In this document: piece by piece, positions 22,405 to 54,874 of the stretch
Layout of the letters: every line of letters starts with the position of its first letter
How positions within the stretch are numbered: the stretch's first letter is position 1
Source: Candidatus Parcubacteria bacterium
Lineage (GTDB): Bacteria; Patescibacteriota; Minisyncoccia; Phycocordibacterales; JAKFXT01
Direction: 5' to 3'
Length of the DNA stretch: 64,000 nt
Assembly: GCA_021414235.1 (NCBI GenBank)
Contig: JAIOOV010000004.1
Coordinates: 473,591-537,590 of the forward strand
The notes under the pieces: model-generated
The model's database searches: none
Seen by the model: the letters and a program-made list of their open reading frames with translations, nothing else
Told to the model about the DNA's origin: nothing
Translations under genes and position numbers: made by a program

Positions 22405-22444
22405 CCCTTTGTCTTGAGCCGGGGAATTGATACTATGTCCGAAT

Positions 22445-23677
22445 ATGAACGCAAATCCGGACGAAATCGCTAAAGACCACGATCACCGCACCTTGGGCAA
22501 GGAGCTCGACCTCTTCACCTTCTCCGAGCTCGTAGGTCCGGGACTTCCCCTCTGGACCCCCCGAGGCACCATCCTCCGCGAAGAGCTGGACAAGTACGTC
22601 TGGGAACTCCGCTCCCGCTATGGCTACCAGAAGGTGACCATCCCGCACATAACCAAGCGCGAGCTCTACGAGACCTCCGGCCACTGGGAAAAGTTCGCTG
22701 GCGACCTCTTTCGTATTGTCTCCCGCGAAGGCAAGGACTACGCGTTGAAGCCGATGAACTGCCCGCATCACACGCAGATCTTCGACCGTAAGCCCCACTC
22801 CTACCGCGAGATGCCCCAGCGCTACGCCGAGACCACCATGGTGTATCGCGACGAGCAGTCCGGCGAATTGGGCGGCCTCACCCGTGTACTCTCCATCACC
22901 CAGGACGATGCGCACGTGTTCTGCCGCATGAGCCAGATTCGCGAAGAATTCCTCAACATCTGGGATATCGTGGATACCTTCTACAAGACGTTCGGCTTCA
23001 GCCTGCGGGTACGCCTCTCCTTCCGCGACCCCAGCACTCCGGAGAAATATATCGGTACCAAAGAAATCTGGGACAAAGCCGAAGCAGAACTCCGAGAGAT
23101 GGCGGAGGAGCGTGGCGCTGACTATATCGAAGGCCCTGGTGAAGCCGCCCTCTACGGACCAAAGCTCGACTTCATGGCTAAGAACGCCGCAGGGAGAGAG
23201 TGGCAGGTAGCCACCATCCAGCTCGACCTCAACCAGCCAGAGCGTTTTAATCTCACCTGCGTAAACGAGAAGGGAGAGAAGGAGCGTATCGCCATGATCC
23301 ATGCCGCTATCACTGGCTCCATCGAGCGCGCTACCGCCGTAATCCTGGAACACCTCGGCGGCGTACTCCCCGCCTGGCTCTCACCAGTACAGGTAGCCCT
23401 CCTCCCTGTGAGCGACAAGCACAAGGAATATGCGGAGTCCGTGCACAAAGAACTCATAGCTGCGGGCGTACGCGCAGAGCTCGCAGCGGATAATGAAAGT
23501 CTGGGTAAGCGTATCCGCGAAGCCAAGCTCATGAAGATCCCCTATCTCCTCGTCGTAGGAGACAAGGAGGTGGAGAGCAATCAAGTCTCTGCAGAGAATC
23601 GCTCAGGCAGCCTCGGCGCGATGAGTCTTGGAGATTTCAAAGGGATGATTTTGAAGGAGATACAGGAGAGAAAGTAA
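22445..23677 (+). CDS. thrS: Threonyl-tRNA synthetase, catalytic core plus anticodon-binding domain only (no N-terminal TGS or editing domains)
   Basis: Class II motifs and ThrRS-specific residues (PLWTPRGTILREEL..., KPMNCPHHTQIF, RVLSITQDDAHVFC). About 410 aa compared with about 640 aa in typical bacteria. ATG at 22445 (MNANPD) preferred over the track start 22427. Confidence 0.85.
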   Translation: MNANPDEIAKDHDHRTLGKELDLFTFSELVGPGLPLWTPRGTILREELDKYVWELRSRYGYQKVTIPHITKRELYETSGHWEKFAGDLFRIVSREGKDYALKPMNCPHHTQIFDRKPHSYREMPQRYAETTMVYRDEQSGELGGLTRVLSITQDDAHVFCRMSQIREEFLNIWDIVDTFYKTFGFSLRVRLSFRDPSTPEKYIGTKEIWDKAEAELREMAEERGADYIEGPGEAALYGPKLDFMAKNAAGREWQVATIQLDLNQPERFNLTCVNEKGEKERIAMIHAAITGSIERATAVILEHLGGVLPAWLSPVQVALLPVSDKHKEYAESVHKELIAAGVRAELAADNESLGKRIREAKLMKIPYLLVVGDKEVESNQVSAENRSGSLGAMSLGDFKGMILKEIQERK

Positions 23678-23746: not shown

Positions 23747-24163
23747 TCACCAGCCGTTGGGGCAAGCTCGCGTCCTCATTTCGTCCGTGAGCTTGTACTT
23801 CTCGGCATCTGCCGAGTAATCGCGGTAGAGACCGGTGGAGCTGAAGGCCGAAACCTGCCGCGGAAGCAGCTGGCCGGCGTCATAGATCAGGTCGTAGAAG
23901 TTCCCGCCGGCGTCGTTGATGAAGACGTGCATGGGGTGACCGAGCTTCTGAGGGCAGTTGAATCGCCAGAAGTTCGGATGCCGCTCGACCCTCATACTGA
24001 TCGTGCCGGACTCGCGAGCCCAGCTGTAGTCGTGGCCAAGGTGGGTCACCTGGCCATAGACGACCGGTGGATACTGGGCGAAGCTTGCCGAGACACTCGC
24101 CAACGACACCAGCAAGCTCAGCGCGACCAAACGGAACAACTTGAGCATTTGAGACCTCCTCAT
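23747..24163 (-). CDS. Small secreted hypothetical protein (signal peptide)
   Basis: 138 aa. N-terminal LFRLVALSLLVSLASVSASFA signal peptide. Confidence 0.55.
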   Translation of the reverse strand: MRRSQMLKLFRLVALSLLVSLASVSASFAQYPPVVYGQVTHLGHDYSWARESGTISMRVERHPNFWRFNCPQKLGHPMHVFINDAGGNFYDLIYDAGQLLPRQVSAFSSTGLYRDYSADAEKYKLTDEMRTRACPNGW

Positions 24164-24189
24164 TCTGCTCGTTGAAACACTGCTTTATA

Positions 24190-24218
24190 CTATACACTAT
24201 AAATATACATAAGTCAAG
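24190..24218 (-). promoter_or_regulatory. Sigma70-like promoter (TTGACT, 17 bp spacer, TATAGT) for the 23747..24163 gene
   Basis: Minus-strand hexamers at 24218..24213 and 24195..24190. Confidence 0.5.
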
Positions 24219-24233: not shown

Positions 24234-24268
24234 AAAAAGCCGCTCCAAAGGAGCGGCTTTTTGCTTTA
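24234..24268. terminator. Terminator hairpin GCCGCTCC aaa GGAGCGGC flanked by an A-run and a T-run (serves the 24282..26123 gene on the minus strand)
   Basis: Read directly from sequence. Confidence 0.6.
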
Positions 24269-24281
24269 GTAACAAAGTGAA

Positions 24282-26123
24282 TTATGCCTCAGGGAATTCC
24301 TTGCGGCTCTCGCGAGCAGCCATGTCCATGACACGGGATACTGCGAGACGTGCGCCCAAGAGCTTCGAGCTGTAGCTCTCATCCCCTGCTCCGATGAGTG
24401 CCGTGATGGCGGACTCGAGCGTCTGGAGGCTCCAGCCGGCGGTCGCAGTAAGCGACTGCTCGTTGGCACCAATCTCACGCACAGTGCGGAAGCGGTGTAC
24501 CTTGTCGAGCTCGTAGGAAGCCGCCTTGAGGAACTCAGGGATGTTGTGACCCTGCGCATCGAGCATGTGGAGGAGCGCAGAACTCTTGGTGCTGTTCCCT
24601 GCTGCGAGCCAGCGTACGAACATCGGCACCATAGAGAGATAGGTGGAGAAGAGCATCTCGCGGACACGCGTTGCCGAGAGCGAGAGCCAAGAGTATTCCG
24701 GCTTCTCGTACCAGGCATGCGCCACTTCGGTGAGTTCAGAGAGAACATTCTGGGCCTGCTCTGCCTTACCATCCGCTGCAGAGAGGATGAGGGCAGCTGC
24801 ATCCTCGGAGAGGAGGATTTCCTTCTCACGAGCGTAGCTTACGAGCATCTCATAGATGCGAGTCTTCTCCTCATTGCTCATGCCGGTCGCAACCTTAGGT
24901 GCTGCAGGAGCCGCCTTGAGGGTGCGAATCTGGCTTACGAGATCAAGCGGTGCATCAGCTTCCTTGCGGAGAGCGAGTGCTGCCGGAGCTGCCACTACCT
25001 CAGGGGTAGCAACTGGCTCTGCAACCTCTTCAACAACAGGAAGCGAGACTTCCATCACCGAGCTTAGAGCGACAGTGCGCGGCAGCGGCGTGAACGGATT
25101 AAGGAGATCTGCATAAGGCTTGAGTGCAGCGCCCACGGAGAGAGCGTAGCGGGACATGTCATCCCCCATGGAAGCGAGAGGCTGGAATACCTGCATCGAG
25201 CGCGAGATACCACCGGCATAGACCATGCCGTAGGAGAACATCGCGGAGAGACCAAGAAGCCCGAAGAGGAAGAAATACGTGAAGAGGGTGTCGCCTACGC
25301 CGGTGTACGGGATGGAACCGAGGTTCACCGAGACGAAGGATGCGAGCGGAGAGCTGCCAGTCACGCGGGTGAGCTCGACGTTCGGCATCGTACCGCCGCC
25401 GCCGGTGGAGCTACCGCCACCAGAAGAACTGGAAGACGAGCTGCTACCACCGCCAGAGGAAGATCCTGGAGGAGGCGGAGGAGGTGGGGGCGGAGGAGGA
25501 GGCGGAGGCACTTCTATACCGCCAGAGGAAGAACCGGAAGAAGAACCCGGAGGAGGCGGAGGAGGTGGGGGCGGAGGAGGTACCTCTATACCACCAGAGG
25601 AAGAGCTAGGAGGTGGTGGTGGGGGCGGCGGAGGAGGCGGAGGGGAAGGAGGTTCGATGTTCGGACCCGCTTCTATAGGACCACCAGAGGAGGAACTACC
25701 TGTCTCGCCGCCGGAAGATGAGCCACCGCAGCCCTCGCAGCCACCCGAAGAGGAGCCCATACCATCGCTGGAGCCGCCACATCCTTCACAACCGCCAGAG
25801 GAAGAACCCATGCCGTCGCTAGAGCCACCACAACCCTCGCAGCCACCGGAAGAGGAGCCCATACCATCGCTGGAGCCGCCACATCCTTCACAACCGCCAG
25901 AGGAAGAACCCATGCCGTCGCTAGAGCCACCCTCGGCTCCGCCACCGTCGCCGCCACCATCCGAGGAGCCCATGCCGCCACCGTCGCCGCCTTCCTGAGC
26001 AAAGACGCTGGAAATGGAATTACCAGTAAAATTATTCGAAAGAGAAAAACCGACCACGAATGAGGCTATGGTGAGCACGAGGGCACTGCTGATGATTAGA
26101 TTTTCTTTAAGGAATTGGTTCAT
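24282..26123 (-). CDS. Repeat-rich membrane protein: signal/anchor, four tandem SSDGMGSSSGGCEGCGG repeats, three poly-proline runs (11-15 Pro), a Gly/Ser-rich stretch, a TM helix, and a 330-aa C-terminal domain of unknown function
   Basis: 613-aa ORF. The repeats and the CxxC (CEGC) motifs were read from the translation. N-terminal VFAQEGGDGGG... is paralogous to the small ORF at 55944..56156. Confidence 0.7.
   Translation of the reverse strand: MNQFLKENLIISSALVLTIASFVVGFSLSNNFTGNSISSVFAQEGGDGGGMGSSDGGGDGGGAEGGSSDGMGSSSGGCEGCGGSSDGMGSSSGGCEGCGGSSDGMGSSSGGCEGCGGSSDGMGSSSGGCEGCGGSSSGGETGSSSSGGPIEAGPNIEPPSPPPPPPPPPPPPSSSSGGIEVPPPPPPPPPPPGSSSGSSSGGIEVPPPPPPPPPPPPPPGSSSGGGSSSSSSSSGGGSSTGGGGTMPNVELTRVTGSSPLASFVSVNLGSIPYTGVGDTLFTYFFLFGLLGLSAMFSYGMVYAGGISRSMQVFQPLASMGDDMSRYALSVGAALKPYADLLNPFTPLPRTVALSSVMEVSLPVVEEVAEPVATPEVVAAPAALALRKEADAPLDLVSQIRTLKAAPAAPKVATGMSNEEKTRIYEMLVSYAREKEILLSEDAAALILSAADGKAEQAQNVLSELTEVAHAWYEKPEYSWLSLSATRVREMLFSTYLSMVPMFVRWLAAGNSTKSSALLHMLDAQGHNIPEFLKAASYELDKVHRFRTVREIGANEQSLTATAGWSLQTLESAITALIGAGDESYSSKLLGARLAVSRVMDMAARESRKEFPEA
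25455..25640. repeat. Roughly 190-nt homopurine (GGAGG/GGCGG-rich) tract on the plus strand with an internal direct repeat of about 66 nt. It encodes the poly-Pro runs on the minus strand.
   Basis: Read directly from sequence. Confidence 0.75.
25722..25930 (-). repeat. In-frame tandem DNA repeats (2 x ~102 nt, equal to 4 x 17-aa GGCEGCGG units) inside the 24282..26123 CDS
   Basis: Near-identical 102-nt units visible on the plus strand (ggagcccataccatcgctggagccgccacatccttcacaaccgccagaggaagaacccatgccgtcgctagagccacc...). Confidence 0.8.
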
Positions 26124-26273: not shown

Positions 26274-27473
26274 TCAGATCGTGCCGACTCGGAAGCTGAG
26301 CACCCCTCGGCCGGAGCCGGAGAGCACTTTCTCCCCGAGGTTGTCCTGCGCACGAATGCGCAAGGCTCCGGTGTTCTTGTCACCGTAGCCATCAGGCAGA
26401 CAGTCGCAGGCCTGAGGATACCCCGCCACGTAGGCGGGATTCTCCGACCACACCGCTGCGCCCATTCCCTTCCGACCAAGTGAAGGAGGGATGTAGAGCG
26501 CGACTTCGCCTGCGAACGGGAATTCGCCGAGGAAATCACCCTTGTCCCCTTCCTTCTTGATGAGCGTGAGGGTCGCAGTACCGCCCGAAGAGAGCGGCAC
26601 CTGGACCTTCATGCCGAGGGGTTTCCCTGCCGCGTTCGCCTCTTTAAGGGCGATGTGCATGATGACGTGCCGCGTATCGAGCGGCACGGTCTTACGCAGA
26701 TGGTCCGGGGAGAGGTTTCGAGAATCCTGCGCCTCGCACCAGAGCTTGTTGGCATCGCCGACCGGCTGGAAGGCCTGGAGGCAGAGACGGAAGTGGCCCC
26801 GCATCGAGGCGACGCAGGCGCCGGTCGCCGAAACTTGCAGCGGCGGAGACGCGACAACGGGCCTCTGCCCACGGGCATCCACCCGCCAGAAGTTTTTGCA
26901 CCCGTTGAACTGGCCGATGTACATGCCATCGATCAGGCAGACTTTGGTGCCCCGATCCGAATGACCTTCAGGGACGTTCCCGATGGCCACCCTTACATGC
27001 TCCTGGACCACATGTTCCTCTTTCTTGGTCCGAGGATTCTCCCGAGTGAAAGTGAGACGATCGAGCACGACGCCATTCGGCAGAACTGCGTCGGCACACT
27101 CGTTGTTGTTGATCATCCGCTTGAAGCGGATGCACTGACCGACGTTGAGGCCGAGCAATCGACAGTTGGTGTCGACGTCAGCCTTGTTGCCATTGGCGTG
27201 CATGGTCTGCCACGCCTTCCCCAACGCCGTAGAGACCGGCGCGCTGGGGAAAGCTTCAACAGGAACCATAGCGGTCACATGCTCCCCCGAGACCCCCGGG
27301 AGAGAAAGCTGACCCACGCTGACCGCCGAGCCGGAGCTCGCGCTCTGGCCGATGCCCTGCGGGGCGCAGGCTGCAAGCCCGAAGGCCAGCAGCACAACAA
27401 GAAGACTGTATACTTTCTTCACGACACCACCTCTCTTCTTGATATGGGATTCTGAACTTCTTACGACAAACAA
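26274..27473 (-). CDS. Hypothetical lipoprotein (lipobox LAAC)
   Basis: 399 aa. N-terminal KKVYSLLVVLLAFGLAAC signal with lipobox. Confidence 0.6.
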   Translation of the reverse strand: MFVVRSSESHIKKRGGVVKKVYSLLVVLLAFGLAACAPQGIGQSASSGSAVSVGQLSLPGVSGEHVTAMVPVEAFPSAPVSTALGKAWQTMHANGNKADVDTNCRLLGLNVGQCIRFKRMINNNECADAVLPNGVVLDRLTFTRENPRTKKEEHVVQEHVRVAIGNVPEGHSDRGTKVCLIDGMYIGQFNGCKNFWRVDARGQRPVVASPPLQVSATGACVASMRGHFRLCLQAFQPVGDANKLWCEAQDSRNLSPDHLRKTVPLDTRHVIMHIALKEANAAGKPLGMKVQVPLSSGGTATLTLIKKEGDKGDFLGEFPFAGEVALYIPPSLGRKGMGAAVWSENPAYVAGYPQACDCLPDGYGDKNTGALRIRAQDNLGEKVLSGSGRGVLSFRVGTI

Positions 27474-27522: not shown

Positions 27523-28179
27523 TCAGTTCTCGAACGGATAGCTCTTCACAAAATGCGCTGTGACTACGAAGCGCTCTTCTTTCGCTCCCCACACGTTACA
27601 AGTAGACAGGATGAGCTTCCCCTCCTTCTTCCCTATCTCCACAGTCTGATTCCCTGCGAGTACCTTCTCCACGGAATCCACTACATAGAGAAAGGTGGTA
27701 TTCGCCCCCGAGAGCTCGATCTCATCCCCGCGCTTCAGCTCCTTCAGCCGATTAAACACCTTGTAGGCCTGGTTGTGCACTACCGGAAGCCCAGAGCTGT
27801 GGCCGAACAAGAGGATGTTCTGATTGCTCCCCAGGAGCCCTGAGCCGGGATAGTGCACCGGGCCCTCCTGGAGGGCCTTCTCCAGCACCGTGTCGTCCTG
27901 GGTCGAAGGGCTCCGCACTGCGGTCGAGAGTTTGATTGCGGGGATACTCACGGCCCGTACTACGCCGAGTTCTGCTGAGATAGACGGAAGAGTAGCCACT
28001 TCCTTTCCGAGGATGAGCCCCCTCCAGAATTCCCGGAGACCTAAGGGAGCCAACCCGATGGCCGAGAGAGCGAAGGAGAGGAGAGCGAACACGACGAGCA
28101 GAAGGAGGAGAAAACGCCTACGCTGAGGCTTTTTATCTGTATCTTCATTCATCTGGTGCTCATTCTTAGCTTCCATGGC
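27523..28179 (-). CDS. Sortase-family transpeptidase
   Basis: N-terminal TM anchor, conserved His (LLFGHSSG), active-site LILSTC (TLXTC-type) and a downstream Arg. Track ORF extends to 28323, but MEAKNEH at 28179 gives the natural sortase architecture. Confidence 0.7.
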   Translation of the reverse strand, partial: AMEAKNEHQMNEDTDKKPQRRRFLLLLLVVFALLSFALSAIGLAPLGLREFWRGLILGKEVATLPSISAELGVVRAVSIPAIKLSTAVRSPSTQDDTVLEKALQEGPVHYPGSGLLGSNQNILLFGHSSGLPVVHNQAYKVFNRLKELKRGDEIELSGANTTFLYVVDSVEKVLAGNQTVEIGKKEGKLILSTCNVWGAKEERFVVTAHFVKSYPFEN

Positions 28180-28430
28180 TGTTATGTCAACGTTCGGCGT
28201 TAGACGCACATTGCTATTTTTTTTAGATAAAGTCAAGGGCTCTCTCGCGCCTCTTCCCACTTTTCTAAAAGTGGGAAGAGGCGCCCTTCTCTGGTACTTG
28301 CAGGGAGGACTCGGGATTGTCATACTCCGCCCATACCAACGTCCTTCCTGCTAAAGGCACTTGTACCCGCAGAGCTGTAGCTCAGGAATGACTTGACAGG
28401 AGCATAAAATTATAGTAGTTAGAACACATT

Positions 28431-29504
28431 ATGAATAGAGATACCGAGCAGTACCGGGACATCGCCATCAAGAGCTTGGCAGTCCTCGGCCTCATGACCA
28501 TCCTCGCTTTGGGCAGCTTCCTCACGCTTACCGCGCTTACCTACATCCCCAAGGTAGTCCGCTCCGTCGGCACCTTTGTCGCGAGCACCACTCCGGACGT
28601 GACCACCACCGTGGCCAACGTGAAGAATGCAGTCCAGGGCAACCTCGGCTTCGCCTCCAACAGGACCGCGCTTTCGAACGGCTCTTCCGTAACCCTCTTC
28701 TGGGACAAGACCAGCGCTGAGGCTGGCGGCTCCTACGCGCTCACCTACCCGTGCGTCAGCGGCGTCTCCGTCTCCTACAAGGGCACCACCCTCTCCTGCA
28801 ATGTCCCCTTCTATCTCGACCAAGACGCAGAAGAGGTCACCCTCTCGGTAAATTCTAAGAAGGTGCGTAACGCGGAAGTAGCCTTCGCGCTCCACTTCAC
28901 CAAGAACGGCGAGAATCGTGTCACTTCTACCGATACCACGGCCGTCTCTGTAACGAACTCCGCCATCGCTTCGACGGATGAGGCTCCTGCAGCTCCAGCC
29001 AAGCCGACAGTGACCGCCACCCGCCCTCCGGTCTACAACATCGTCAACTCCTACATCCCGGGCATCCCGACCACCTACTCCACCGTCTACATCCCGGGTA
29101 ACACTACCTACGTTCCGACTCCAGGAGCAGAGTGGGGTCAGGCGGATCTCCGCCCGGTGATCCTCGAGGTAGGAGTCATGGACCCGTACAGCAAGGTCAT
29201 CACTCCGACCCGCTACATGAGCCGCACCAGTAAGGTGGCCGTACGCTTCGCTGTCGAGAACATCGGTACCAAGACTTCCCACCCATGGGTCTTCAACGCG
29301 GTGCTTCCTACCTCCCCTCGCTACACCTACCTTCCTGAGTTCCAGCCACCTCTTCGCCCAGGGGAACGCATCGAGTACACCCTCTCCTTCGACCGTGTCG
29401 TAGAGGACAACAACTCGATCATCGTCACCGTAGACCCGGCAGGCACGCTCGCGGAAGCCACTAAGGCCAACAACTCCGTCACCGCGACCTTCACAGCGTT
29501 CTAA
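28431..29504 (+). CDS. Secreted or anchored protein with a CARDB-like C-terminal domain
   Basis: 357 aa. N-terminal signal anchor, Thr/Ser-rich. C-terminal VENIGTKTS...NNS pattern reminiscent of CARDB or Ig-like folds. Preferred over the overlapping antisense ORF 28419..29537. Confidence 0.55.
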   Translation: MNRDTEQYRDIAIKSLAVLGLMTILALGSFLTLTALTYIPKVVRSVGTFVASTTPDVTTTVANVKNAVQGNLGFASNRTALSNGSSVTLFWDKTSAEAGGSYALTYPCVSGVSVSYKGTTLSCNVPFYLDQDAEEVTLSVNSKKVRNAEVAFALHFTKNGENRVTSTDTTAVSVTNSAIASTDEAPAAPAKPTVTATRPPVYNIVNSYIPGIPTTYSTVYIPGNTTYVPTPGAEWGQADLRPVILEVGVMDPYSKVITPTRYMSRTSKVAVRFAVENIGTKTSHPWVFNAVLPTSPRYTYLPEFQPPLRPGERIEYTLSFDRVVEDNNSIIVTVDPAGTLAEATKANNSVTATFTAF

Positions 29505-44994: not shown

Positions 44995-45426
44995 TTACTG
45001 CTGCACCTCGATTGATCCGCGGAAGCGGGCGTGGAGATGATCATGCATATTCCACTTACCTATCCTCTCGAACTGGAAGGAATAGGTTTCTCCAGGACCT
45101 ACCGGCTTGTCAGAATCGAATTCGGAATAGATTTCGTGCGTCGGATGAAGGTCAGAAGCTGGCCAGTGGAAATCCTTGCCGACATTCACGAACTCTATAA
45201 TCTGGCCCTTCTTGATGACGAGAGTAGAGGGCTCGAAGCCATCGTCAGTCATGTTCACCGTGATCCTAGGGAGAGCAGGCGTAGAAGAAGCGGTATCTGG
45301 CGTAGTAGTAGCTATATTTTCTGTAGGGGTCTCCACGACCACCTCAGGTGCCGTGCGGTTGGTCCAGTAATACCAGCCGCCGCCGAAGACTACGATGACT
45401 ACGGCAAGAAGTATGAGTTTATTCAT
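44995..45426 (-). CDS. Secreted cupredoxin-like, His-rich protein (no Cys)
   Basis: 143 aa. EFVNVGKDFHWPASDLHPTHEIY...WNMHDHLHARF. Overlaps the next gene by 4 nt. Confidence 0.4.
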   Translation of the reverse strand: MNKLILLAVVIVVFGGGWYYWTNRTAPEVVVETPTENIATTTPDTASSTPALPRITVNMTDDGFEPSTLVIKKGQIIEFVNVGKDFHWPASDLHPTHEIYSEFDSDKPVGPGETYSFQFERIGKWNMHDHLHARFRGSIEVQQ

Positions 45427-45920
45427 CGTGAACGCAGGGAAAAGTAAGTAATAGCGCCGCCCGCGAAGAACGCGGCGAGTACCGATAATAGCATACCGAG
45501 AGGAACGGATGATTTGGACGTCTCCGCCTTTTCCGCCTCAAAAGTGAAAGTATGTTCTGCCACGGTTCTGCCCCCCTTCTCAAAACGCACATCCATCTCA
45601 TAGGCCCCCTCCTGCGGAAAACGATAAGTAAGCACCGTCTTGCCGATATCCGCCTTAGCTATGCCCGTAGCGAAATACGCGGCGGAGCCTCTACCGAGAC
45701 GCACCCAGATATGGTCGAAGGCTATTTCTTCCCCTCCGGCATCAAGAACGGAGAAATCAAAAATCGTACTCTCCCCCGAGACTGGAGCAGAAGAGTATCC
45801 GATATCCATCAGAACTCCCGAAGAGAGAGTAGCTTCAAAGGAAGCGCTTTCACCGTGTGCCGCAACGGTACACGGGATGAGCAAGATCGCAATAATGTAA
45901 AACGAGAGTGCGTATTTCAT
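45423..45920 (-). CDS. Secreted beta-rich protein whose mature N-terminus begins with His (CopC/YcnI-like candidate) and has a C-terminal TM anchor
   Basis: Signal peptide MKYALSFYIIAILLIPCTVAA/HGE, C-terminal LLSVLAAFFAGGAITYF. Internal start at 45920 chosen because it abuts the upstream stop (45925). Copper binding is inference only. Confidence 0.4.
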   Translation of the reverse strand: MKYALSFYIIAILLIPCTVAAHGESASFEATLSSGVLMDIGYSSAPVSGESTIFDFSVLDAGGEEIAFDHIWVRLGRGSAAYFATGIAKADIGKTVLTYRFPQEGAYEMDVRFEKGGRTVAEHTFTFEAEKAETSKSSVPLGMLLSVLAAFFAGGAITYFSLRSR

Positions 45921-45924
45921 GATG

Positions 45925-47133
45925 CTATGGACGAGCGCCGCAATGCTCCTGCCACTTCTCCGGAAGGAGAGAACAGAGACGATTCGACTCTGGGGAGCCG
46001 GCATGGAAGGTGAAGCTTGCAGTGCGCACCATGATGTCATAACAAGTCTCCCCTACCCCCTTCGCTTCCGCAGCAGCACAGAGGGCTACGGAGCGTTCGA
46101 TATTGCGGTAGTCGTTCTCCAGGAGGCGGGAAGCCGCATCCGCATAACAGAGCCCGCGATCCTCCGGAAGCATAGTGTCGCAGAACGCGCCGATCTTCTC
46201 GTTATCGAATTCAAGCTGCGCCACGAAGACGAACACCAAGGCATGCTTGCAGCGCTCGCGAGGGCCGGCTTCAGAGAGCTGGTTGCACCAGCGACTAATA
46301 GCGCCTGGCGCCTTCAGCTCTTCTCGCTGAAGCGGCCAGGATTCGCTCCAGCAAGACGCCTTGTCGTAACCGCTATAAGCGGAACAATACGCACGCTGGG
46401 TCCCCGTAGCCACCTCCTTACCCTTGATGAGGTCGAAGTCGTCCGGCTCGAGCGGCTGGAAGATCTGCATGAACACGCCATCGGAGCAGACCTGACTCAT
46501 ATCCTGCCCCGGCTTTATGGAAAGTTCCCTGCACAGACCGAGCGATTTCGGGATATCCGCGCGAGTGATGTACATAAGCAGATGCCCGAGCGCATGGTAG
46601 CAGCTCGCCTGTTCGAGCCCCGTAGGATTGAAGCTATCCTGCGGCTCGCACACGTTCGCGAATTCGGGTTTGTACTTTTCGATCTCGCTGTCAGAGAGAG
46701 ATTCTGTACGGAAGCGTTCTTGGAACGCGCCGTGGATGCAGCCGTTGGAGCATACGCCAGATGGACAGCGCTGGATCACCTCCGTCCACTTATCCGGATC
46801 CTTGGCGGTTTCCTTGGCGCTGATCTTGTGCCCGAGCACATGGCAGTAGGTGTAGGTCTTGTCCTTGGCTTGAACTACTGCTGCGACGCGCACCGCATCC
46901 TCCATGGAAACGCCCTTGTCCATGAGCTTGGGGATCTCGTCTTCGTAGCAGGTCGGACGATATCGTGCGCTCGCGCAAGCGGCGACGACCTCGTCAGCGT
47001 AACGCACCAGACGCATCCCCGGATCAGGAGCAAGCATGGGAGCGGCGAGTATGTAAATCTCACCAAAGAGGAAAGCCGCGAGGATAACGATAGCGGCAGC
47101 AAACTTCGTATGCTTCTTTAAAAACGAGTTCAT
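45925..47133 (-). CDS. Membrane-anchored Cys/His-rich protein, paralog A of a tandem triplicated family (C-x-H-[AG]-x-G-H motif)
   Basis: 402 aa. CYHALGHLLMYI and CHVLGHKIS motifs. 26 Cys. Confidence 0.6.
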   Translation of the reverse strand: MNSFLKKHTKFAAAIVILAAFLFGEIYILAAPMLAPDPGMRLVRYADEVVAACASARYRPTCYEDEIPKLMDKGVSMEDAVRVAAVVQAKDKTYTYCHVLGHKISAKETAKDPDKWTEVIQRCPSGVCSNGCIHGAFQERFRTESLSDSEIEKYKPEFANVCEPQDSFNPTGLEQASCYHALGHLLMYITRADIPKSLGLCRELSIKPGQDMSQVCSDGVFMQIFQPLEPDDFDLIKGKEVATGTQRAYCSAYSGYDKASCWSESWPLQREELKAPGAISRWCNQLSEAGPRERCKHALVFVFVAQLEFDNEKIGAFCDTMLPEDRGLCYADAASRLLENDYRNIERSVALCAAAEAKGVGETCYDIMVRTASFTFHAGSPESNRLCSLLPEKWQEHCGARP

Positions 47134-47134
47134 A

Positions 47135-48145
47135 TCAGCGGATTATCTGAGAACCGGCCACACAGCTCTGTCGTGCATCTTCCGAAAGTCCGGCGCAGAG
47201 CTGAGGCGAGAGATCCCGCACGCGAGGCTCTGCGAAGAAGCTCCAGGAAGCCCCCTGGCGGCACAGCAGCTGTTCTTCCGTCCCAACGAGACTATTGCAG
47301 ACAGCGAGAGACTTCTTTACATCATACCCCGACTCCGGAGCCACGATATTGCCGATACCTTTGAAGCACGCCTCCCGCTCGCCCTTCGCACCAACCTCGG
47401 CACAGAGAGCGGCTGCTGGAGCGGCATCTCCATTAAATGTCCGCATCCACCATTGCGGCATATCGAAATAGCAGGCTTCGCGATATATGGAAAGAGCGTC
47501 GCAGGGCGCATGCGCCTTCTTCGGGTCGAACATGCGCGGGGAGGTAAGGTCGGGATCAGCCATCGTATGAAAATTGTACTCCATGAAGACTCCGCCGGAG
47601 CAGCCGCCGATCGGTCCTTTCCAGGTGAGCGTCGCACAGATATCGAGCGCCTCCGCGAGTTTGTCATCGCCGACAGACCACAGGAGGCCGTGCCCGATTC
47701 CATGCGAGCAGCCCAGGCCCTTCTCTCCCCACGCTGCCACGCAGGCGCGATCAAGCTGGCCAAGCACTTCTACCCCATGCTCGCTGATGGCCCGCCCGAA
47801 GAAGCTGTGGTAGCAGCCGAAGCCGAACGAGCTGTCACAGACCGCGACCCCAGGAAGTCCCTCTTTCTCATACAGTAACTCCCCAAAGACATGCGCAAGC
47901 GAATGCGCCGAGCCAGGCGGAAGCTTTCCGTACACCTCCACGAATTTCTGGTACGCAGCCTTCGCACCCAGCGTATCTATGGTCTCTGCCCACTCAGCCT
48001 TCTCACGCTTAAAATATTTGGATTGGAGCCGTGGTGGATCAGGGACCTCGGTGCCGCGCGAGATATACAGATAGTATGCTTCGCCAGCTACGAAAAAGAT
48101 CAGGATAGCGGCGGCGAAAATAAGTTTTAACGGGTAACGGCGCAT
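47135..48145 (-). CDS. Membrane-anchored Cys/His-rich protein, paralog B
   Basis: 336 aa. CSHGIGHGLLWS and SAHSLAHVFG motifs. Confidence 0.6.
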   Translation of the reverse strand: MRRYPLKLIFAAAILIFFVAGEAYYLYISRGTEVPDPPRLQSKYFKREKAEWAETIDTLGAKAAYQKFVEVYGKLPPGSAHSLAHVFGELLYEKEGLPGVAVCDSSFGFGCYHSFFGRAISEHGVEVLGQLDRACVAAWGEKGLGCSHGIGHGLLWSVGDDKLAEALDICATLTWKGPIGGCSGGVFMEYNFHTMADPDLTSPRMFDPKKAHAPCDALSIYREACYFDMPQWWMRTFNGDAAPAAALCAEVGAKGEREACFKGIGNIVAPESGYDVKKSLAVCNSLVGTEEQLLCRQGASWSFFAEPRVRDLSPQLCAGLSEDARQSCVAGSQIIR

Positions 48146-49335
48146 GAGGCAGTATAGGGTTGCGGATAAGCAGCGCAGAACTCTCTCATGTAACGACCAT
48201 CGCGGCCTCTAAAATAACGCGCCATATCTGCGAGCCGGGTGAAGCAATCTCTCTGATCGCCCTCTTCCGGAATCACGCTGCAGTAACGTACCGAGGCATG
48301 GAAATCATTCTCCCCTCCCCAATAAAGCGAAGCGACTGCCTGAAAGGAGCAATCCCTCCTGCCATCTTCCGCTGGCGAGAGCGAGCACCACTCATACATC
48401 GTACGCATAGCCTCATCCGGAAGTGATGTCACCGCACGTACATCGCGAGAAGAGAGGATTACCGGGAACTCCTTACCGAAACCACCGAAGCAGGCGCGCC
48501 GATCCTCTCTCTGTGTGAGCGCGTCACAATAGGTCATGCCAATCCTGAAATCTTCCGCCTTCGGAGCTCCCAGATTGCCTCCGGCAGCCTCCATAAGATG
48601 CGGAGTGAGGTAGGTGTAGCAGAAGCCGCGCACATCCTTCGGCATGAAATCCGCGTCACAGGGATAGAGCGGATCTTCCTCCTTGAAATATTTCTTCGCC
48701 TTCTCCTCGCGGAGCTTAGGATCATGTACGCCGCCGGTCATCTCCATGATGGTGCCGCCGATGCACTCCTGGTATTCGTTCGCCTTGTTACCAGCAGATT
48801 CCCCCGCGCGCTTACAGAGCGGCACCGCCTGATCCAGTTCGTAATCCGTATATGCAAGCACGCCATGCCCCAGGCCGTGATAGCACATGTTGTACGCTCC
48901 GGCACCGCCGGGAGCCTTGCGACAGATCGCAGCCACCTTCTCGAGCACGGGCGGCCCGAACTCGAGAAGCGCGCCGATCACTACCGTATGCGAGCAGGCG
49001 TTGCGCAGATCAGGCGTGCAGTAGGCCATACCCTCGAGGCCATATTGCTTGTAGAGCTCATCCCCCACCGTATGTCCCACGAGATGCATGTCCACACCGG
49101 GGACAGAAGGCATGCGGATGAGCACCTGGTACGCATACGGAGCACCTTTGGCTTCGGCAAGATCCCGAAAGTATCGCGAGAGCTCGGGGAAGGAGCGTGG
49201 TGTCTGGAGTTCAGCGAGTTCCGGATATGAACCCGCGCTCGCAAAGAGAAGATAGCCCCCGAGAGAGAGATTCAGAAGGAGAAGGGCGGCAGCTGAAGAG
49301 AGAATCAGCCGGTACCGGAAGAGAGACCGCATCAA
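48127..49335 (-). CDS. Membrane-anchored Cys/His-rich protein, paralog C
   Basis: 402 aa. MCYHGLGHGVLAYT and HLVGHTVGDELY motifs. Confidence 0.6.
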   Translation of the reverse strand: MMRSLFRYRLILSSAAALLLLNLSLGGYLLFASAGSYPELAELQTPRSFPELSRYFRDLAEAKGAPYAYQVLIRMPSVPGVDMHLVGHTVGDELYKQYGLEGMAYCTPDLRNACSHTVVIGALLEFGPPVLEKVAAICRKAPGGAGAYNMCYHGLGHGVLAYTDYELDQAVPLCKRAGESAGNKANEYQECIGGTIMEMTGGVHDPKLREEKAKKYFKEEDPLYPCDADFMPKDVRGFCYTYLTPHLMEAAGGNLGAPKAEDFRIGMTYCDALTQREDRRACFGGFGKEFPVILSSRDVRAVTSLPDEAMRTMYEWCSLSPAEDGRRDCSFQAVASLYWGGENDFHASVRYCSVIPEEGDQRDCFTRLADMARYFRGRDGRYMREFCAAYPQPYTASCAVTR

Positions 49336-49342
49336 GAAGTGA

Positions 49343-49879
49343 TTACTCCGTCACGAAGATCATGCCAGAGGCGCTTACGGAAGATCCGCAGCCGTAGCCG
49401 TAGATGCCGCCATTCTGGGCAAATGCGACCTTGAACTCCTTGGTTTCTCCAGCAGGAACGGAGTACACGGAATCCTTATTGAAGGCGATGGTCTGCTCTA
49501 CCGTTGCCGTGTTCTTTATTTTAAGAGGCGCGCCTTTCTTTAGCGCGAGCACCACCGGCTTCACAGAACAACTCGTGCCGATCTCAAGCGCCGGGACCGT
49601 TTTAGCTGCAGAGACCACTACATCAAAGAATGCTTTCTGCTCTGCCGCCGTCGCATTCTGGGAAGGAGGCGTAAGCGCTTTCTTCTCCTCAGCAGAGAGC
49701 TCGTAGGAAGAGCCAGCGGGAAGATTCACCCCAGTAGAAGGAGTCTGCGGAGCGTTTGTCGAAGGATTCTGGGAGGTCGTGCCCGCAAGAGGCTTATAAT
49801 CCCGCACATAGATGAGATAACCGAGGACGACAGCGCCGACCGCAAGTACCCCGACGATGATCTTTAATGTTCGCTCCAT
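49343..49879 (-). CDS. Membrane-anchored hypothetical protein (178 aa)
   Basis: N-terminal TM, Ser/Thr/Pro linker, C-terminal beta-rich domain ending GGIYGYGCGSSVSASGMIFVTE. Confidence 0.5.
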   Translation of the reverse strand: MERTLKIIVGVLAVGAVVLGYLIYVRDYKPLAGTTSQNPSTNAPQTPSTGVNLPAGSSYELSAEEKKALTPPSQNATAAEQKAFFDVVVSAAKTVPALEIGTSCSVKPVVLALKKGAPLKIKNTATVEQTIAFNKDSVYSVPAGETKEFKVAFAQNGGIYGYGCGSSVSASGMIFVTE

Positions 49880-49937
49880 ATGATTATATTTATGATTACA
49901 GTGAGTATACTCCGTTCGACGTCTCCATTATCCCCAG

Positions 49938-50795
49938 TTAGATCTCCTCAAAAGCAGGATTGACCCGGCAATCCACCGTCTTCGAGGTATTAACTTCAGA
50001 ACCGTTGTAGCAACGTACTGTGTAGGTACTCGTCTCGGTGACATTCGGTACGGATACCGAACCGGATGTCCCTGTCTGGCTCACTCCTGGGCCCGTGACC
50101 GTGCAGGAAGTAGCATTCGTCGCTGACCAGGTGAAGCTGCAGGAAGCGCCTTTGTTGATCACGATGGAGGGAGCGGCAGGAACCGTGGTGATGGTGGGCG
50201 CCGTACAAGAGGATTCCGGCGGAGCCACGGTAGCGGAACACGCACCCGCACAGCTATACGTACCGTAGGTCACCGCGCCGCAGCTATTAGCGGCAGATGT
50301 ACAGACCTGTCCCTGGTTGGCAGAGCAATAAGAAGCTTGGTAGTAGCCCTGGGAGTAGTAGTAGCCTTGATAGTACCCCTGCGAGTAATAGTAAGGTTGG
50401 TAATACCCCTGAGAGTAGTAGTAGCCTTGGGAATAGTAGTAGCCTTCGTAATACCCCTGGTAGTAAGACTGGTAATAACTTTGATAATACGATTGATAGT
50501 ACCCTTGGTAGTAACCCTGGTAGTACCCCTGATAGTAGGATTGGTAGTAGCCTTGGTAATACCCCTCTGCATAAGAATCCCCCGAAGCCGGGAGTATGAC
50601 TCCTCCCTCCTCTCCATTCGGTGAGAGCGAGTTGTAATCAATCTCTGGAGACTGCGGACCAGAGCTCTTCTCCAAATACCCCAAACTTGCTAGAGAGATG
50701 ACGAGAAAGATTGCCACACTCGCAAAGGAAAGGAGCCTGCGCTCGCGGAGTAGGTTAGAAAATCTTTTATTTATTTCACGAAAAAAGTGCCTCAT
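49938..50795 (-). CDS. Tyr/Gln/Gly-rich repeat protein 1 (YYQGYYQS repeats) with N-terminal anchor and conserved Cys-rich C-terminal domain
   Basis: 285 aa. About 25 copies of (G/S)YYQ-type units, then the ASYCSANQGQVCTSAANSCGAVTYGTYSCAGACSATVAP domain ending CRVNPAFEEI. Confidence 0.7.
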   Translation of the reverse strand: MRHFFREINKRFSNLLRERRLLSFASVAIFLVISLASLGYLEKSSGPQSPEIDYNSLSPNGEEGGVILPASGDSYAEGYYQGYYQSYYQGYYQGYYQGYYQSYYQSYYQSYYQGYYEGYYYSQGYYYSQGYYQPYYYSQGYYQGYYYSQGYYQASYCSANQGQVCTSAANSCGAVTYGTYSCAGACSATVAPPESSCTAPTITTVPAAPSIVINKGASCSFTWSATNATSCTVTGPGVSQTGTSGSVSVPNVTETSTYTVRCYNGSEVNTSKTVDCRVNPAFEEI

Positions 50796-50857
50796 CGTAC
50801 GTCTTTTATTGTAGCACTATGTAAACCCCCCTGACACCAGCGAGGTACGTCCAATTC

Positions 50858-51775
50858 TTAGATTTCTTCAAAAGTCGGATTGACCTGGCAGTTCACCGTC
50901 TTTGTGGTATTCACCATGGAGCCATTGTAACAACGCACTTGGTAGCTTCTCGATTGCGTGATATCAGGGACAGACACTGAGCCCGAAAGACCAGTGGAAT
51001 TCACCCCAGGACCGGTCACGACGCAAGAAGTAGCATTAGCACTGCTCCAGCTAAAGCTGCAAGCATCGCCTCTATTGATGACGATTGTCGGAGAAGGAGG
51101 CGCAACAGTGATAACTGGGACGACGCAGGAAGATTCCGCAGGAGCCACGGTAGCGGAACACGCACCCGCACAGCTATACGTACCGTAGGTCACCGCGCCG
51201 CAGCTATTAGCGGCAGATGTACAGACCTGTCCCTGGTTGGCAGAGCAATAAGAAGCTTGGTAGTAACCTTGATAATAACCTTGATACGCCGCTTGATAGG
51301 CGGACTGGTAATAGCTCTGGTAGTAGGATTGATAAGCAGCCTCATATCCAGCTTGGTAATACCCTTCGTAATAAGGCTGATAGTAGCTCTCGTACGTAGA
51401 CTGATATTGGCTCTGGTAATACGCCTCGTAGGTCGACTGGTACTGGCTTTGATAGTAACCCTCGTACGTAGACTGATATTGGCTCTGGTAATACGCCTCG
51501 TAGGTCGACTGGTACTGGCTCTGGTAATAGCTTTGGTAAGCAGCTTCAAAATAAGAATCCCCCGAAGCCGGGAGTATGACTCCCCCCTCCTCACCATTCG
51601 GTGAGAGCGAGTTGTAATCAATCTCTGGAGACTGCGGACCGTTATCAATCGGCTGAAGGTAGCTCAAGGCGGAAATCACAGCCAAAACCAGAGCCAATAC
51701 CGCCAGAAAGAGCAACTTCCGATCACACAGCAAAGCGCCCATATTACGCCGCCATCTCTTAAGAAGGTACTTCAT
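50858..51775 (-). CDS. Tyr/Gln-rich repeat protein 2 (YYQSQYQSTYEA repeats), tandem paralog of 49938..50795
   Basis: 305 aa. Shares two exact or near-exact nucleotide blocks with its neighbour (50221-50345 = 51142-51266; 50572-50660 ~ 51552-51640). Confidence 0.7.
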   Translation of the reverse strand: MKYLLKRWRRNMGALLCDRKLLFLAVLALVLAVISALSYLQPIDNGPQSPEIDYNSLSPNGEEGGVILPASGDSYFEAAYQSYYQSQYQSTYEAYYQSQYQSTYEGYYQSQYQSTYEAYYQSQYQSTYESYYQPYYEGYYQAGYEAAYQSYYQSYYQSAYQAAYQGYYQGYYQASYCSANQGQVCTSAANSCGAVTYGTYSCAGACSATVAPAESSCVVPVITVAPPSPTIVINRGDACSFSWSSANATSCVVTGPGVNSTGLSGSVSVPDITQSRSYQVRCYNGSMVNTTKTVNCQVNPTFEEI

Positions 51776-51784
51776 CCTATTTTG

Positions 51785-52609
51785 TTACTGAATCGCACTT
51801 AAGTCTGCCCCAGAGAGGAGTAGAAGATTTTTCTCTACAGAGCGCAGAGAACCCGCAAGACCTTGTGGATGATATCGAGCGTCGTTCCCAGGGTACGCCC
51901 TACCCCACTCCTCTGGCGTCATGGCTTTGAAACCAGCAAGAGCTTTCTCCAGGGCACTACGAGCCTCTTCCCTCTCTCCGAGATTAAGGAGCGCAACACC
52001 AAGAGAGTTCTGAAGCCAAGGATTCTCCGGATGATAAGAAAGGGCCTTTTCTGCAACCGTAAGGACATCCTTATAGCGACCCTGCCGAAAATAGATCCAA
52101 CAGAGGTCATTCGCTCCCGCCCAGCTCTCCGGTTCCAATTCCAGATACCTAGCGAAGTCACCCTCTGCCTCCGAGAGATTATTCCTATATCCGTACACAA
52201 GCCCACGCATGTAATAAGCGTTGTGGATGGAAGAATCCAGCCGCAGGGTCTCGTTTATAGCCTCGATAGCTTTGCTATAACGCCCCTGAAAGAAATAAAC
52301 CCGGGAGAGACCGAAATGGATATATCCCGGCTCTGGATACCCTAAGTCGAGAGCCCTCTTATAAAGTTCCTCTGCCTTCTTTAGGTCATGAGCATTCTCT
52401 CCGAGATAAAAATTACCCGCGCGATAGGCTAAGCTAGCATCCTCCGGCGCAAGCGCGAGAGCTACGGCAGGCATATGTAGCCTCTCCATAAACACATGGG
52501 CCCACAAGGGTCGATGGAAATCGACATAGGAATAGAGGCTCTTCCAACTAAGAAGAGTCGTGAGAGCGAGGAGAAGACCAAGGAGGCAAAGAACCGCACG
52601 CAGGCGCAT
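51785..52609 (-). CDS. TPR-repeat protein with signal/anchor
   Basis: 274 aa, multiple TPR-like helices (AYRAGNFYLGENAHDLKKAEELYKRALDL...). Confidence 0.6.
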   Translation of the reverse strand: MRLRAVLCLLGLLLALTTLLSWKSLYSYVDFHRPLWAHVFMERLHMPAVALALAPEDASLAYRAGNFYLGENAHDLKKAEELYKRALDLGYPEPGYIHFGLSRVYFFQGRYSKAIEAINETLRLDSSIHNAYYMRGLVYGYRNNLSEAEGDFARYLELEPESWAGANDLCWIYFRQGRYKDVLTVAEKALSYHPENPWLQNSLGVALLNLGEREEARSALEKALAGFKAMTPEEWGRAYPGNDARYHPQGLAGSLRSVEKNLLLLSGADLSAIQ

Positions 52610-54119: not shown

Positions 54120-54874
54120 ATAACCATTTCGCCAAGCGGTTCCATCATCAAGCCATCGCGAACTGGCGTCTACCCAAAACTCGCGATGCCAAGAATCCGA
54201 TCCCCAGGGAAGATATCTTATTCAAGACATACCCTCGCTCTGAAAACACGGCGCTCGCCGAGCCGCTTCCCCTCAGCCATACACTCGAGAAAACCCTCTC
54301 CGAGCGGAAGACGACGCGCTCCTTCGATCCAGTCTCCGCCGTCAGTTTCCAAGAACTCTCTTCCCTGCTCTTCTGGAGCGCCGGACTTAGAGAGAACCGT
54401 ACAGACCCACAACAGAGCAAACGGTTCTATCCATCCGCGGGAGAACGTTATCCGCTAGAGATATATATAGCTGCGCGCAACGTCGATGGCTTGCCTAAAG
54501 GCCTGTATCACTTCAATCTCCTCAAGAACTCTCTGGAGAAGATAGGTGGTGAGGAATACTGCGATAATTTTCAAAAAAACCTCGGGTACGAATGGTCTAG
54601 GGATACCGCAGTAGCCATCCTCATCACCGGAGTATGGGAGCGGACTTTCTCAAAATACGGGGATTTCGGATATCGGCTCATATGTACAGAAGCCGGACAT
54701 GTGGCGCAAAATCTACAGCTCATAGCCCAATCCCTTGGTCTGGACTATGCCTCTATCGCAGGGTTCAAAGAAAAAGAGATGGATACCCTCCTAAATCTGG
54801 ACTCGGATAAAGAATCATCTCTCTACCTGACCCTCATAGGAAAAGCTACACCTTCCACCCGAACGAACGCATGA
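54116..54874 (+). CDS. SagB-type (McbC-like) FMN-dependent dehydrogenase of the nitroreductase superfamily
   Basis: SERKTTRSFDPVSAVSFQELSSLLFWSAGL...YPSAGERYPLEIYI...ICTEAGHVAQNLQLIAQSLGL. Translationally coupled to the YcaO gene. Confidence 0.75.
   Translation: MNNHFAKRFHHQAIANWRLPKTRDAKNPIPREDILFKTYPRSENTALAEPLPLSHTLEKTLSERKTTRSFDPVSAVSFQELSSLLFWSAGLRENRTDPQQSKRFYPSAGERYPLEIYIAARNVDGLPKGLYHFNLLKNSLEKIGGEEYCDNFQKNLGYEWSRDTAVAILITGVWERTFSKYGDFGYRLICTEAGHVAQNLQLIAQSLGLDYASIAGFKEKEMDTLLNLDSDKESSLYLTLIGKATPSTRTNA

Follow-up and report, generated by a model that had tools for sequence, protein, structure and literature searches.

The 64,000-nucleotide (nt) stretch of DNA analyzed here (the window; positions 473,591 to 537,590 of contig JAIOOV010000004.1 of a Candidatus Parcubacteria bacterium) carries on its minus strand a 613-amino-acid (aa) open reading frame (ORF) at 24282-26123. 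Judging from its sequence, architecture and gene linkage, this ORF is probably the gene for a surface protein precursor that a sortase processes, in a Paceibacterota (Patescibacteria/candidate phyla radiation, CPR) bacterium. A preliminary description, made from the DNA letters, had placed the ORF at these coordinates and divided its product (the window protein) into a signal or anchor, an exported low-complexity part, a membrane helix and a C-terminal domain; both the ORF and this layout proved right. The description did not mention the predicted sorting signal, the linked sortase, the protein family or the clamp-loader-like fold reported below. The features of the ORF are as follows:

24282-26123, minus strand: PYTG-family surface protein precursor, whole ORF (ATG start, 613 aa and stop)
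25998-26123, minus strand: predicted signal peptide or anchor, residues 1-42 (hydropathy; h-region at residues 9-28)
25722-25925, minus strand: four perfect 17-aa units SSDGMGSSSGGCEGCGG, residues 67-134 (51-nt a-b-a-b array, equal to 2 x 102 nt)
25467-25643, minus strand: three poly-Pro runs (12, 11 and 14 residues) with Ser/Gly-GGIEV linkers, residues 161-219
25389-25466, minus strand: Gly/Ser-rich flexible segment, residues 220-245
25299-25388, minus strand: conserved juxtamembrane segment MPNVELTRVTGSSPLASFVSVN-LGSIPYTG, residues 246-275 (aligned to the family)
25299-25322, minus strand: sortase-type motif LGSIPYTG, residues 268-275 (predicted cut T274/G275)
25215-25289, minus strand: predicted transmembrane helix of the sorting signal, residues ~279-303 (hydropathy)
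24885-25214, minus strand: poorly conserved Ala/Pro/Val-rich linker, predicted cytoplasmic, residues 304-413 (low-confidence structure prediction; length and sequence vary in the family)
24285-24884, minus strand: conserved all-helical two-lobed domain, predicted cytoplasmic, residues 414-613 (AlphaFold2, Foldseek)

Kyte-Doolittle hydropathy gave two hydrophobic segments, at residues ~9-28 and ~279-303, and Gly, Ser and Pro together make up 73% of the exported residues 43-274. The N-terminal segment and the (V/A)FA-QE site that follows it are kept in 3/3 orthologs; this site, V-F-A|Q-E in the window protein, is likely a signal-peptidase site at which the precursor would be cleaved. Pfam and NCBIfam searches with the whole 613-aa protein returned nothing significant. 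In Rfam the window contained only one tRNA, so no RNA element accounts for the region.

Two orthologs were found that are full-length and in frame, one of 621 aa with a C-terminal part 93% identical to that of the window protein (L001:9245-11110), and the other of 574 aa and 78% identical (L063:5387-7111). The ATG start, the putative signal peptide and the juxtamembrane segment are common to all three, and every indel among them is a multiple of three. Because these indels are all in frame, we regard the long-ORF architecture as genuine, with repeats that expand and contract. The preliminary description had proposed comparing the repeat copy number across strains or metagenome reads, and comparison of the orthologs revealed length variation: the window protein has four CEGC units and three poly-Pro runs, its 621-aa ortholog three CEGC units and four poly-Pro runs, and its 574-aa ortholog no CEGC unit (a single C-D-C only) and three poly-Pro runs. 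The expansion and contraction that it had suspected were thereby borne out, since both repeat types differ in number among the orthologs, always in frame.

The DNA of the CEGC repeats shows how they arose. The four perfect 17-aa units described earlier are present at residues 67-134, and the 2 x 102-nt tandem was recovered by Tandem Repeats Finder as a 102-nt unit in 2.1 copies (25720-25931, 97% matches), although the same array can also be read as a 51-nt unit in 3.4 copies. Units 1 and 2 differ by 13 nt in 13 of their 17 codons, and all 13 differences are synonymous, so that the repeat peptide, not the DNA alone, is conserved, under purifying selection in the ORF frame. Units 1 and 3 are identical in DNA and units 2 and 4 are set apart by three synonymous changes; thus, a and b go back to an older duplication, and the ab pair as a whole was doubled recently. 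The three poly-Pro runs with their GGIEV separators are also as first described, with lengths of 12, 11 and 14 residues. The ~66-nt direct repeat reported for their DNA stands as a periodicity, of 69-72 nt, but the identity between its copies is merely 68-74%. The supposed ~190-nt pure homopurine tract was not confirmed: at 25455-25640 purines make up only 75% of the plus strand, with no pure run longer than 11 nt. The idea of H-DNA, which had this tract as its premise, was rejected. The exact repeat copy number rests on the assembly, and an independent short-read contig that is 100% identical (L064) breaks inside the poly-Pro DNA.

Public gene calls for close relatives begin at an internal Met (Met246 in the window protein) and give products of 368-378 aa, or are fragments. 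These truncated calls (10001-11110 in L001, 5975-7111 in L063 and 110-1216 in L064) miss the low-complexity exported half, and because the gene callers start at the internal Met, the PYTG family is systematically truncated and under-annotated in public protein sets. If the calls were right, the long ORF would be an artefact of gene calling or assembly, the real gene would start at Met246, and the low-complexity DNA upstream would be non-coding or mis-assembled. That all public calls for close relatives begin at the internal Met or are fragments speaks for this, as do the short-read contig ending within the poly-Pro DNA and the near-perfect 2 x 102-nt repeat, which is open to assembly collapse or expansion. 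We nevertheless hold such an artefact to be very improbable. Three independent assemblies have, in spite of the many indels, a homologous open frame that begins with the same ATG and putative signal peptide; the repeat units diverge by synonymous changes only; a Met246 product would have no signal to put its first 30 residues outside the membrane; and the architecture of the family, described below, demands an exported N-terminal part. The internal-Met start was thus rejected on the grounds of frame conservation and the synonymous-only divergence of the repeats.

The juxtamembrane segment aligns with the family pattern P-x-V-x-L...[VI]-[YTSF]-L-[SDAN]-Q-[VIL]-P-Y-T-G. In the window protein the motif reads V-N-L-G-S-I-P-Y-T-G, which is the sole match within the 64-kb window. 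Residues 271-275, I-P-Y-T-G, agree with an LPXTG-like pentapeptide in having P at position 2, T at position 4 and G at position 5, and a hydrophobic segment comes right after the motif in the window protein and in all relatives. Some relatives have LPYTG, an exact LPXTG fit; this pentapeptide is reportedly also named in a paper on the beta antigen of Streptococcus agalactiae. Following the helix, the family has on average 3.3 Lys/Arg versus 0.66 Asp/Glu, and because of this excess of basic residues the C-terminal part is predicted to lie on the cytoplasmic side.

To survey the motif at the DNA level, one genome per species was scanned with a degenerate pattern encoding YLSQVPYTG. The results showed 54 loci, nearly all of them labelled as Paceibacterota, Parcubacteria, Taylorbacteria or 'Saccharibacteria' metagenome-assembled genomes (MAGs), together with one Bacteroidia and several entries named 'uncultured bacterium'. 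About half of the motif-bearing ORFs have a hydrophobic stretch and a Lys/Arg-rich tail and end 30-61 residues past the motif, which is a canonical sorting signal, while the other half or so extend 220-466 residues past the motif and have the C-terminal domain. Intermediates also occur: L031, L032, L036 and L044 (the last cut by a contig end) have 105-170 residues past the motif and helix, with the first (lid-like) lobe of the domain only.

A sortase gene lies two genes upstream of the ORF, on the same strand, in the following arrangement:

28431-29504, plus strand: CARDB-domain protein, N-terminally anchored (Pfam CARDB; divergent from the sortase gene)
27523-28323, minus strand: sortase (Pfam Sortase, E=2.3e-19; TIGR01076 above cutoff)
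26274-27473, minus strand: 399-aa lipoprotein-like protein with lipobox L-A-A-C, between the sortase and the PYTG ORF

The true start of the sortase is probably Met50 at 28176, which would give 217 aa as in its orthologs. Alignment to the class C sortase 4d7w showed the catalytic His (LFGHS), Cys (LSTC) and Arg (ERFVV) in place. Among the NCBIfam models, it passes the generic sortase model only and falls below the cutoff of every curated class model, the best being class D with 42.8 bits against a cutoff of 165. Linkage to such a gene is a general property of the PYTG loci: a same-strand sortase is present within 3 kb upstream in 39/44 assessable loci, the window included, and in 21/21 of the long-tailed genes. 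Both counts take L003 as linked on the basis of its gene table, the ORF-overlap threshold of the script having scored it 'no'. Likewise, in the gene context of eight family members (P0002, P0003, P0009, P0011, P0023, P0056, P0074 and P0155) a same-strand sortase is found directly upstream or one gene upstream in 8/8 cases. The slot directly downstream of the sortase is taken interchangeably by short-tailed or long-tailed genes, and the PYTG locus often sits between gyrB and thrS-dnaE.

The window thus has the layout CARDB (plus strand), sortase (minus), one inserted gene and PYTG ORF (minus). A protein with a CARDB hit occupies the same position in L001, L002, L006, L007, L008 and L063; L003 and L004 show the same layout with an opposite-strand gene that has no CARDB match, and the upstream region of L005 is cut off. 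A divergent CARDB gene stands on the far side of the sortase at most of the loci examined and is a conserved third component there. Its product, of ~350 aa, lacks a sorting signal at the C-terminus and may act as a partner or as the acceptor in the sortase reaction. The inserted lipoprotein-like gene has no Pfam or NCBIfam match. An insert of this kind (390-399 aa) occurs only in the three closest relatives, that is, in the window, L001 (7915-9093) and L063 (4078-5250), and L008 has a different 552-aa insert in the same slot.

The C-terminal 368 aa, searched exhaustively with HMMER, placed the window protein in a large family, comprising 153 representative clusters at E<=1e-3 and 80 at E<=1e-10; two of three word-indexed homology searches with alignments returned close relatives only. 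The matching domain is C-terminal in every non-fragment match, in proteins of up to ~1500 aa. In 120/149 representatives the motif L-x-Q-[VIL]-P-Y-T-G and a membrane helix precede the domain, P-Y-T-G being invariant, and the representatives without the motif are short fragments. The distance from the motif to the protein end has a median of ~325 aa and is 338 aa in the window protein, where 170-420 aa is the span by which we define the family. When the profile was rebuilt, with 17 distant members among its 18 sequences and the window protein as the other, it matched the window ORF over positions 3-197 of the hidden Markov model.

The ectodomains of the family are highly variable. Of eight members scanned, six were matched by PKD, He_PIG, SpaA_2, Dockerin or DUF11 domains, such as are typically found in sortase-anchored adhesins. 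The ectodomain of P0009 is of low complexity, as is that of the window protein, and contains no Cys. By comparison of these sequences, the window protein is best described as a 'headless' member of a large Patescibacteria family, its folded ectodomains apparently having been lost. What it retains is the putative signal peptide, the stalk, the predicted sorting signal and the C-terminal domain; this suggests to us that the function under conservation resides in the sorting module together with the cytoplasmic domain and not in adhesion.

The region behind the helix had been described as a 330-aa domain, and its structure prediction had been proposed. About 110 aa of this region turned out to be the poorly conserved linker, and the remainder to be a folded domain of 200 aa with a predicted clamp-loader-like fold. 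With a 42-sequence alignment, AlphaFold2 modelled residues 414-613 at a predicted local distance difference test score (pLDDT) of 94.7 and a predicted template modelling score of 0.81; an earlier model of residues 246-613 from a 5-sequence alignment was poor (pLDDT 47). When the good model was compared with the Protein Data Bank (PDB) by Foldseek, 50/50 of the matches listed were clamp-loader subunits. The best was E. coli gamma/DnaX (E=9.7e-5 over ~190 columns, 17-19% identity), and the other matches listed were E. coli delta and delta', B. subtilis delta and eukaryotic RFC, with identities of 12-19% for the bacterial ones. Profile searches gave weaker signals of the same kind: the window protein has a weak holA match (positions about 126-263, E=0.026), P0006 matches dnaX_nterm at positions 177-336 (E=1.1e-4), P0056 matches holA, and the first lobe has weak matches (E ~0.1) to the lid domains of RFC4, RFC5 and RuvBL2. 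A PDB sequence search with a shallow profile gave no matches.

Accordingly modelled, the last 200 residues would share with clamp-loader subunits (DnaX gamma/tau, HolA delta, HolB delta' and RFC) the fold of domains II and III, that is, an AAA+ lid plus collar module from which the ATPase domain I is absent. Neither the Walker A/B motifs nor the delta 'wrench' of domain I was found: the 110 residues ahead of the domain are a disordered linker with no AAA match in Pfam. Because it lacks domain I, and with it both the Walker motifs and the clamp-opening wrench, the window protein is not a clamp-loader subunit; unlike in these subunits, the domain follows a membrane helix as part of an exported protein, and it has motifs of its own (F-x-x-W-L, L-R-x-L-x-x-Q-G, E-L-D-x-x-Y-R and V-D-E-S-Y-S). 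The possibility that it is the HolA (delta) of this genome was rejected for the same two reasons, the absent domain I and the fusion behind a membrane helix. In roughly half of the family an insert separates the lobes, and some members have the second lobe only; the two lobes seem to have been gained or lost separately.

A question raised by these findings is whether the window protein is cleaved at all. In an alternative explanation it would be an uncleaved membrane receptor or tether: the PYTG motif would be merely structural, the ectodomain would bind something outside, the clamp-loader-like domain would signal or tether replication or other machinery inside, and the sortase would serve other substrates. 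The conservation of the 200-aa cytoplasmic domain over 153 clusters implies a cytoplasmic function and so favours this alternative, as does the lack of a canonical short tail; further short-tailed PYTG proteins are also encoded away from the sortase (for example, L024 versus L029 and L062 versus L033, each pair in one MAG). Against this alternative, about half of the motif-bearing genes use the same 8-residue motif in a textbook sorting signal at the C-terminus, the long-tailed genes show the tightest sortase linkage of all (21/21), and short- and long-tailed genes replace each other directly downstream of the sortase. We therefore consider an uncleaved receptor rather unlikely.

Several points weigh against sortase processing as we picture it. 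The motif of the window protein is divergent, with G/S at -3/-2, where the family mostly has S/D/A/N and Q. The tail past the motif is 338 residues long instead of short and charged, and on this account the window protein would be a variant, not a canonical, sortase substrate. A single Arg lies near its helix. At the other end, with 20 aa the h-region is long, and 14 aa separate it from the predicted signal-peptidase site, so the N-terminus may stay as an uncleaved anchor. The Foldseek TM-scores are moderate (0.45-0.52) and the root-mean-square deviation is high (~11 Å); the two lobes probably match clamp loaders individually, in a different relative orientation. Our literature search found no paper tying PYTG, VPYTG or IPYTG to a sortase. 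Cleavage of the PYTG proteins is a prediction, and what we propose for the cytoplasmic domain is conjecture.

Shared with LPXTG-type substrates are a predicted N-terminal export signal, a Pro/Gly/Ser-rich region before the motif, the x-P-x-T-G core (IPYTG here; VPYTG, IPYTG and LPYTG in relatives), the helix and the basic cytoplasmic side, and the gene likewise stands beside one for a His-Cys-Arg sortase. The PYTG family differs in its extended motif, [VI]-[YTSF]-L-x-Q-[VIL]-P-Y-T-G with an invariant Tyr, and in the long-tailed members, where a median of ~325 residues including a folded domain replaces the short charged tail. Canonical sortase substrates leave a remnant of ~30 aa, whereas the window protein would leave one of 339 aa.

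For sortase processing, which we consider the probable fate of the window protein, the following course can be proposed. The N-terminal signal peptide would direct Sec export, and residues 43-274 would come to lie outside as an acidic, disordered Gly/Ser stalk with four CEGC pairs and three polyproline rods. Translocation would halt at a tripartite signal consisting of LGSIPYTG, the membrane helix and the cytoplasmic side. The upstream sortase would then cut between T274 and G275 and pass the stalk of ~230 aa to the wall or to a different amine acceptor (the CARDB partner is conceivable); it is the motif, the architecture and the gene linkage that lead us to infer this cleavage and transfer step. 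The 339-aa remnant would stay in the membrane, its last 200 aa forming the clamp-loader-like domain, which, we conjecture, would hold or cluster precursors through collar-like self-association and persist as a cytoplasmic read-out of sorting.

A membrane remnant with a function of its own after cleavage has a parallel in Streptococcus gordonii, in which the remnant left by sortase A (C-peptide, SGO_1180) is sensed by a two-component system (PMC11326707). The S. gordonii remnant is a short sorting-signal peptide that a separate kinase senses, whereas the remnant predicted here would itself carry the 200-aa domain. In a bolder version, the remnant would be a signalling or tethering module that, by way of a DnaX-derived lid plus collar, docks onto parts of the clamp loader or replisome or forms a collar-like ring. 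This is a speculative and quite unlikely extension; if true, it would mean that surface assembly is coupled to chromosome replication or the cell cycle in minimal-genome bacteria, and would define a new class of 'sorting signal with cytoplasmic effector domain'. The back half of a clamp loader devoid of its ATPase is in any case unexpected here and prompts one to ask what the remnant would do once the stalk has been cut off.

The exported part itself offers another possible function. The window protein could chiefly be a surface protein for metal (Cu/Zn) binding or thiol-disulfide redox chemistry, with the CxxC repeats as its functional core on a poly-Pro stalk. It has eight Cys in four perfect CEGC-GG units that are under purifying selection (the 13/13 synonymous differences), and C-x-x-C-G resembles the knuckles of rubredoxin or zinc ribbons. 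A C-x(2,3)-C-G(G) element within 60 aa upstream of the motif occurs in 69/120 relatives. The C-x-x-C-G-G pairs, 17 residues apart, could in principle form Cys4 sites such as those of rubredoxin/zinc-ribbon knuckles or MxCxxC metal domains. The survey by Méheust et al. (2019) adds that MdbA-like oxidoreductases and VKOR, along with sortase, are enriched in CPR (PMC6744442).

This metal or redox role has, in our view, only a slim chance of being the main one. The copy number of the repeats is not conserved, with three CEGC units in the 621-aa ortholog and one C-D-C in place of any CEGC in the 574-aa one; the Cys pair is missing from 51/120 relatives, and the ectodomain of P0009 has no Cys. No HMA, thioredoxin or other metal/redox domain was matched in Pfam or NCBIfam, and in contrast to rubredoxin, zinc-ribbon and MxCxxC proteins the pairs have no recognised fold around them, being set in disordered, low-complexity Gly/Ser sequence, and are not kept in the nearest ortholog. 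Sortase linkage and the C-terminal domain would also be left unexplained. Because an ortholog of 78% identity has no CxxC repeats, Cu/Zn or thiol-disulfide chemistry, which the preliminary description had put forward, cannot be the conserved function of the protein, which is also no CxxC protein of the HMA-like or thioredoxin-like kind. The four CEGC-GG units seem to have come from the C-x(2,3)-C-G(G) element of the family by tandem amplification in this lineage, and the CEGC pairs, as a conjecture, probably form disulfides or Cys4 metal knuckles that would cross-link the stalk. Sorting signals are preceded by wall-spanning regions, and the suggestion of the preliminary description that the poly-Pro rods are a stalk or spacer agrees with this.

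To our knowledge, no sortase system has been described in which a conserved 200-aa cytoplasmic domain comes after the sorting signal. The motif, the sortase/CARDB/substrate locus and the domain-extended sorting signal all appear undescribed in the libraries and literature searched, and no description of CPR sortase substrates or of their recognition motif was found in that literature; the same holds for sortase substrates in the available part of Méheust et al. (2019) (PMC6744442). The locus therefore offers a candidate CPR sortase motif, L-x-Q-[VIL]-P-Y-T-G, together with a dedicated and recurring sortase-substrate gene pair.

Downstream of the ORF, one further element was read from the sequence:

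24234-24257, minus strand: likely intrinsic terminator of the ORF, a GC-rich hairpin (GCCGCTCC-TTTG-GAGCGGC) followed by a T-run

This hairpin was found by direct reading and is absent from the output of a simple terminator scan. Just past it, and before the gene of a 138-aa secreted protein (23747-24163), there is a good sigma-70-like promoter match, TTGACT-17-TATAGT, at 24189-24217 on the minus strand. Because this match sits between the ORF terminator and the 138-aa gene, the two genes are probably separate transcription units.

Two observations concern other genes of the window. The threonyl-tRNA synthetase at 22427-23677 (plus strand) is short, with 416 aa, as are those of L001 and L007 (409-410 aa), and probably lacks the N-terminal editing region; at other family loci the enzyme has 585-592 aa, and the L002 copy has a weak tRNA_SAD match. 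In the distal part of the window, the gene right after that of a YcaO cyclodehydratase (52653-54119; Pfam E=1.6e-48) encodes a nitroreductase-family protein (54116-54874). A TPR protein is encoded just upstream of the YcaO gene (51785-52609, minus strand), and beyond that lies a run of ORFs without Pfam matches (45400-51800); the G+C content drops to ~50-51% at 50-56 kb, covering part of this run. From its gene content, the region looks like a cluster for an azoline-type ribosomally synthesized peptide with post-translational modifications (RiPP), similar to the thiazole/oxazole-modified microcins, in a small Patescibacteria genome.

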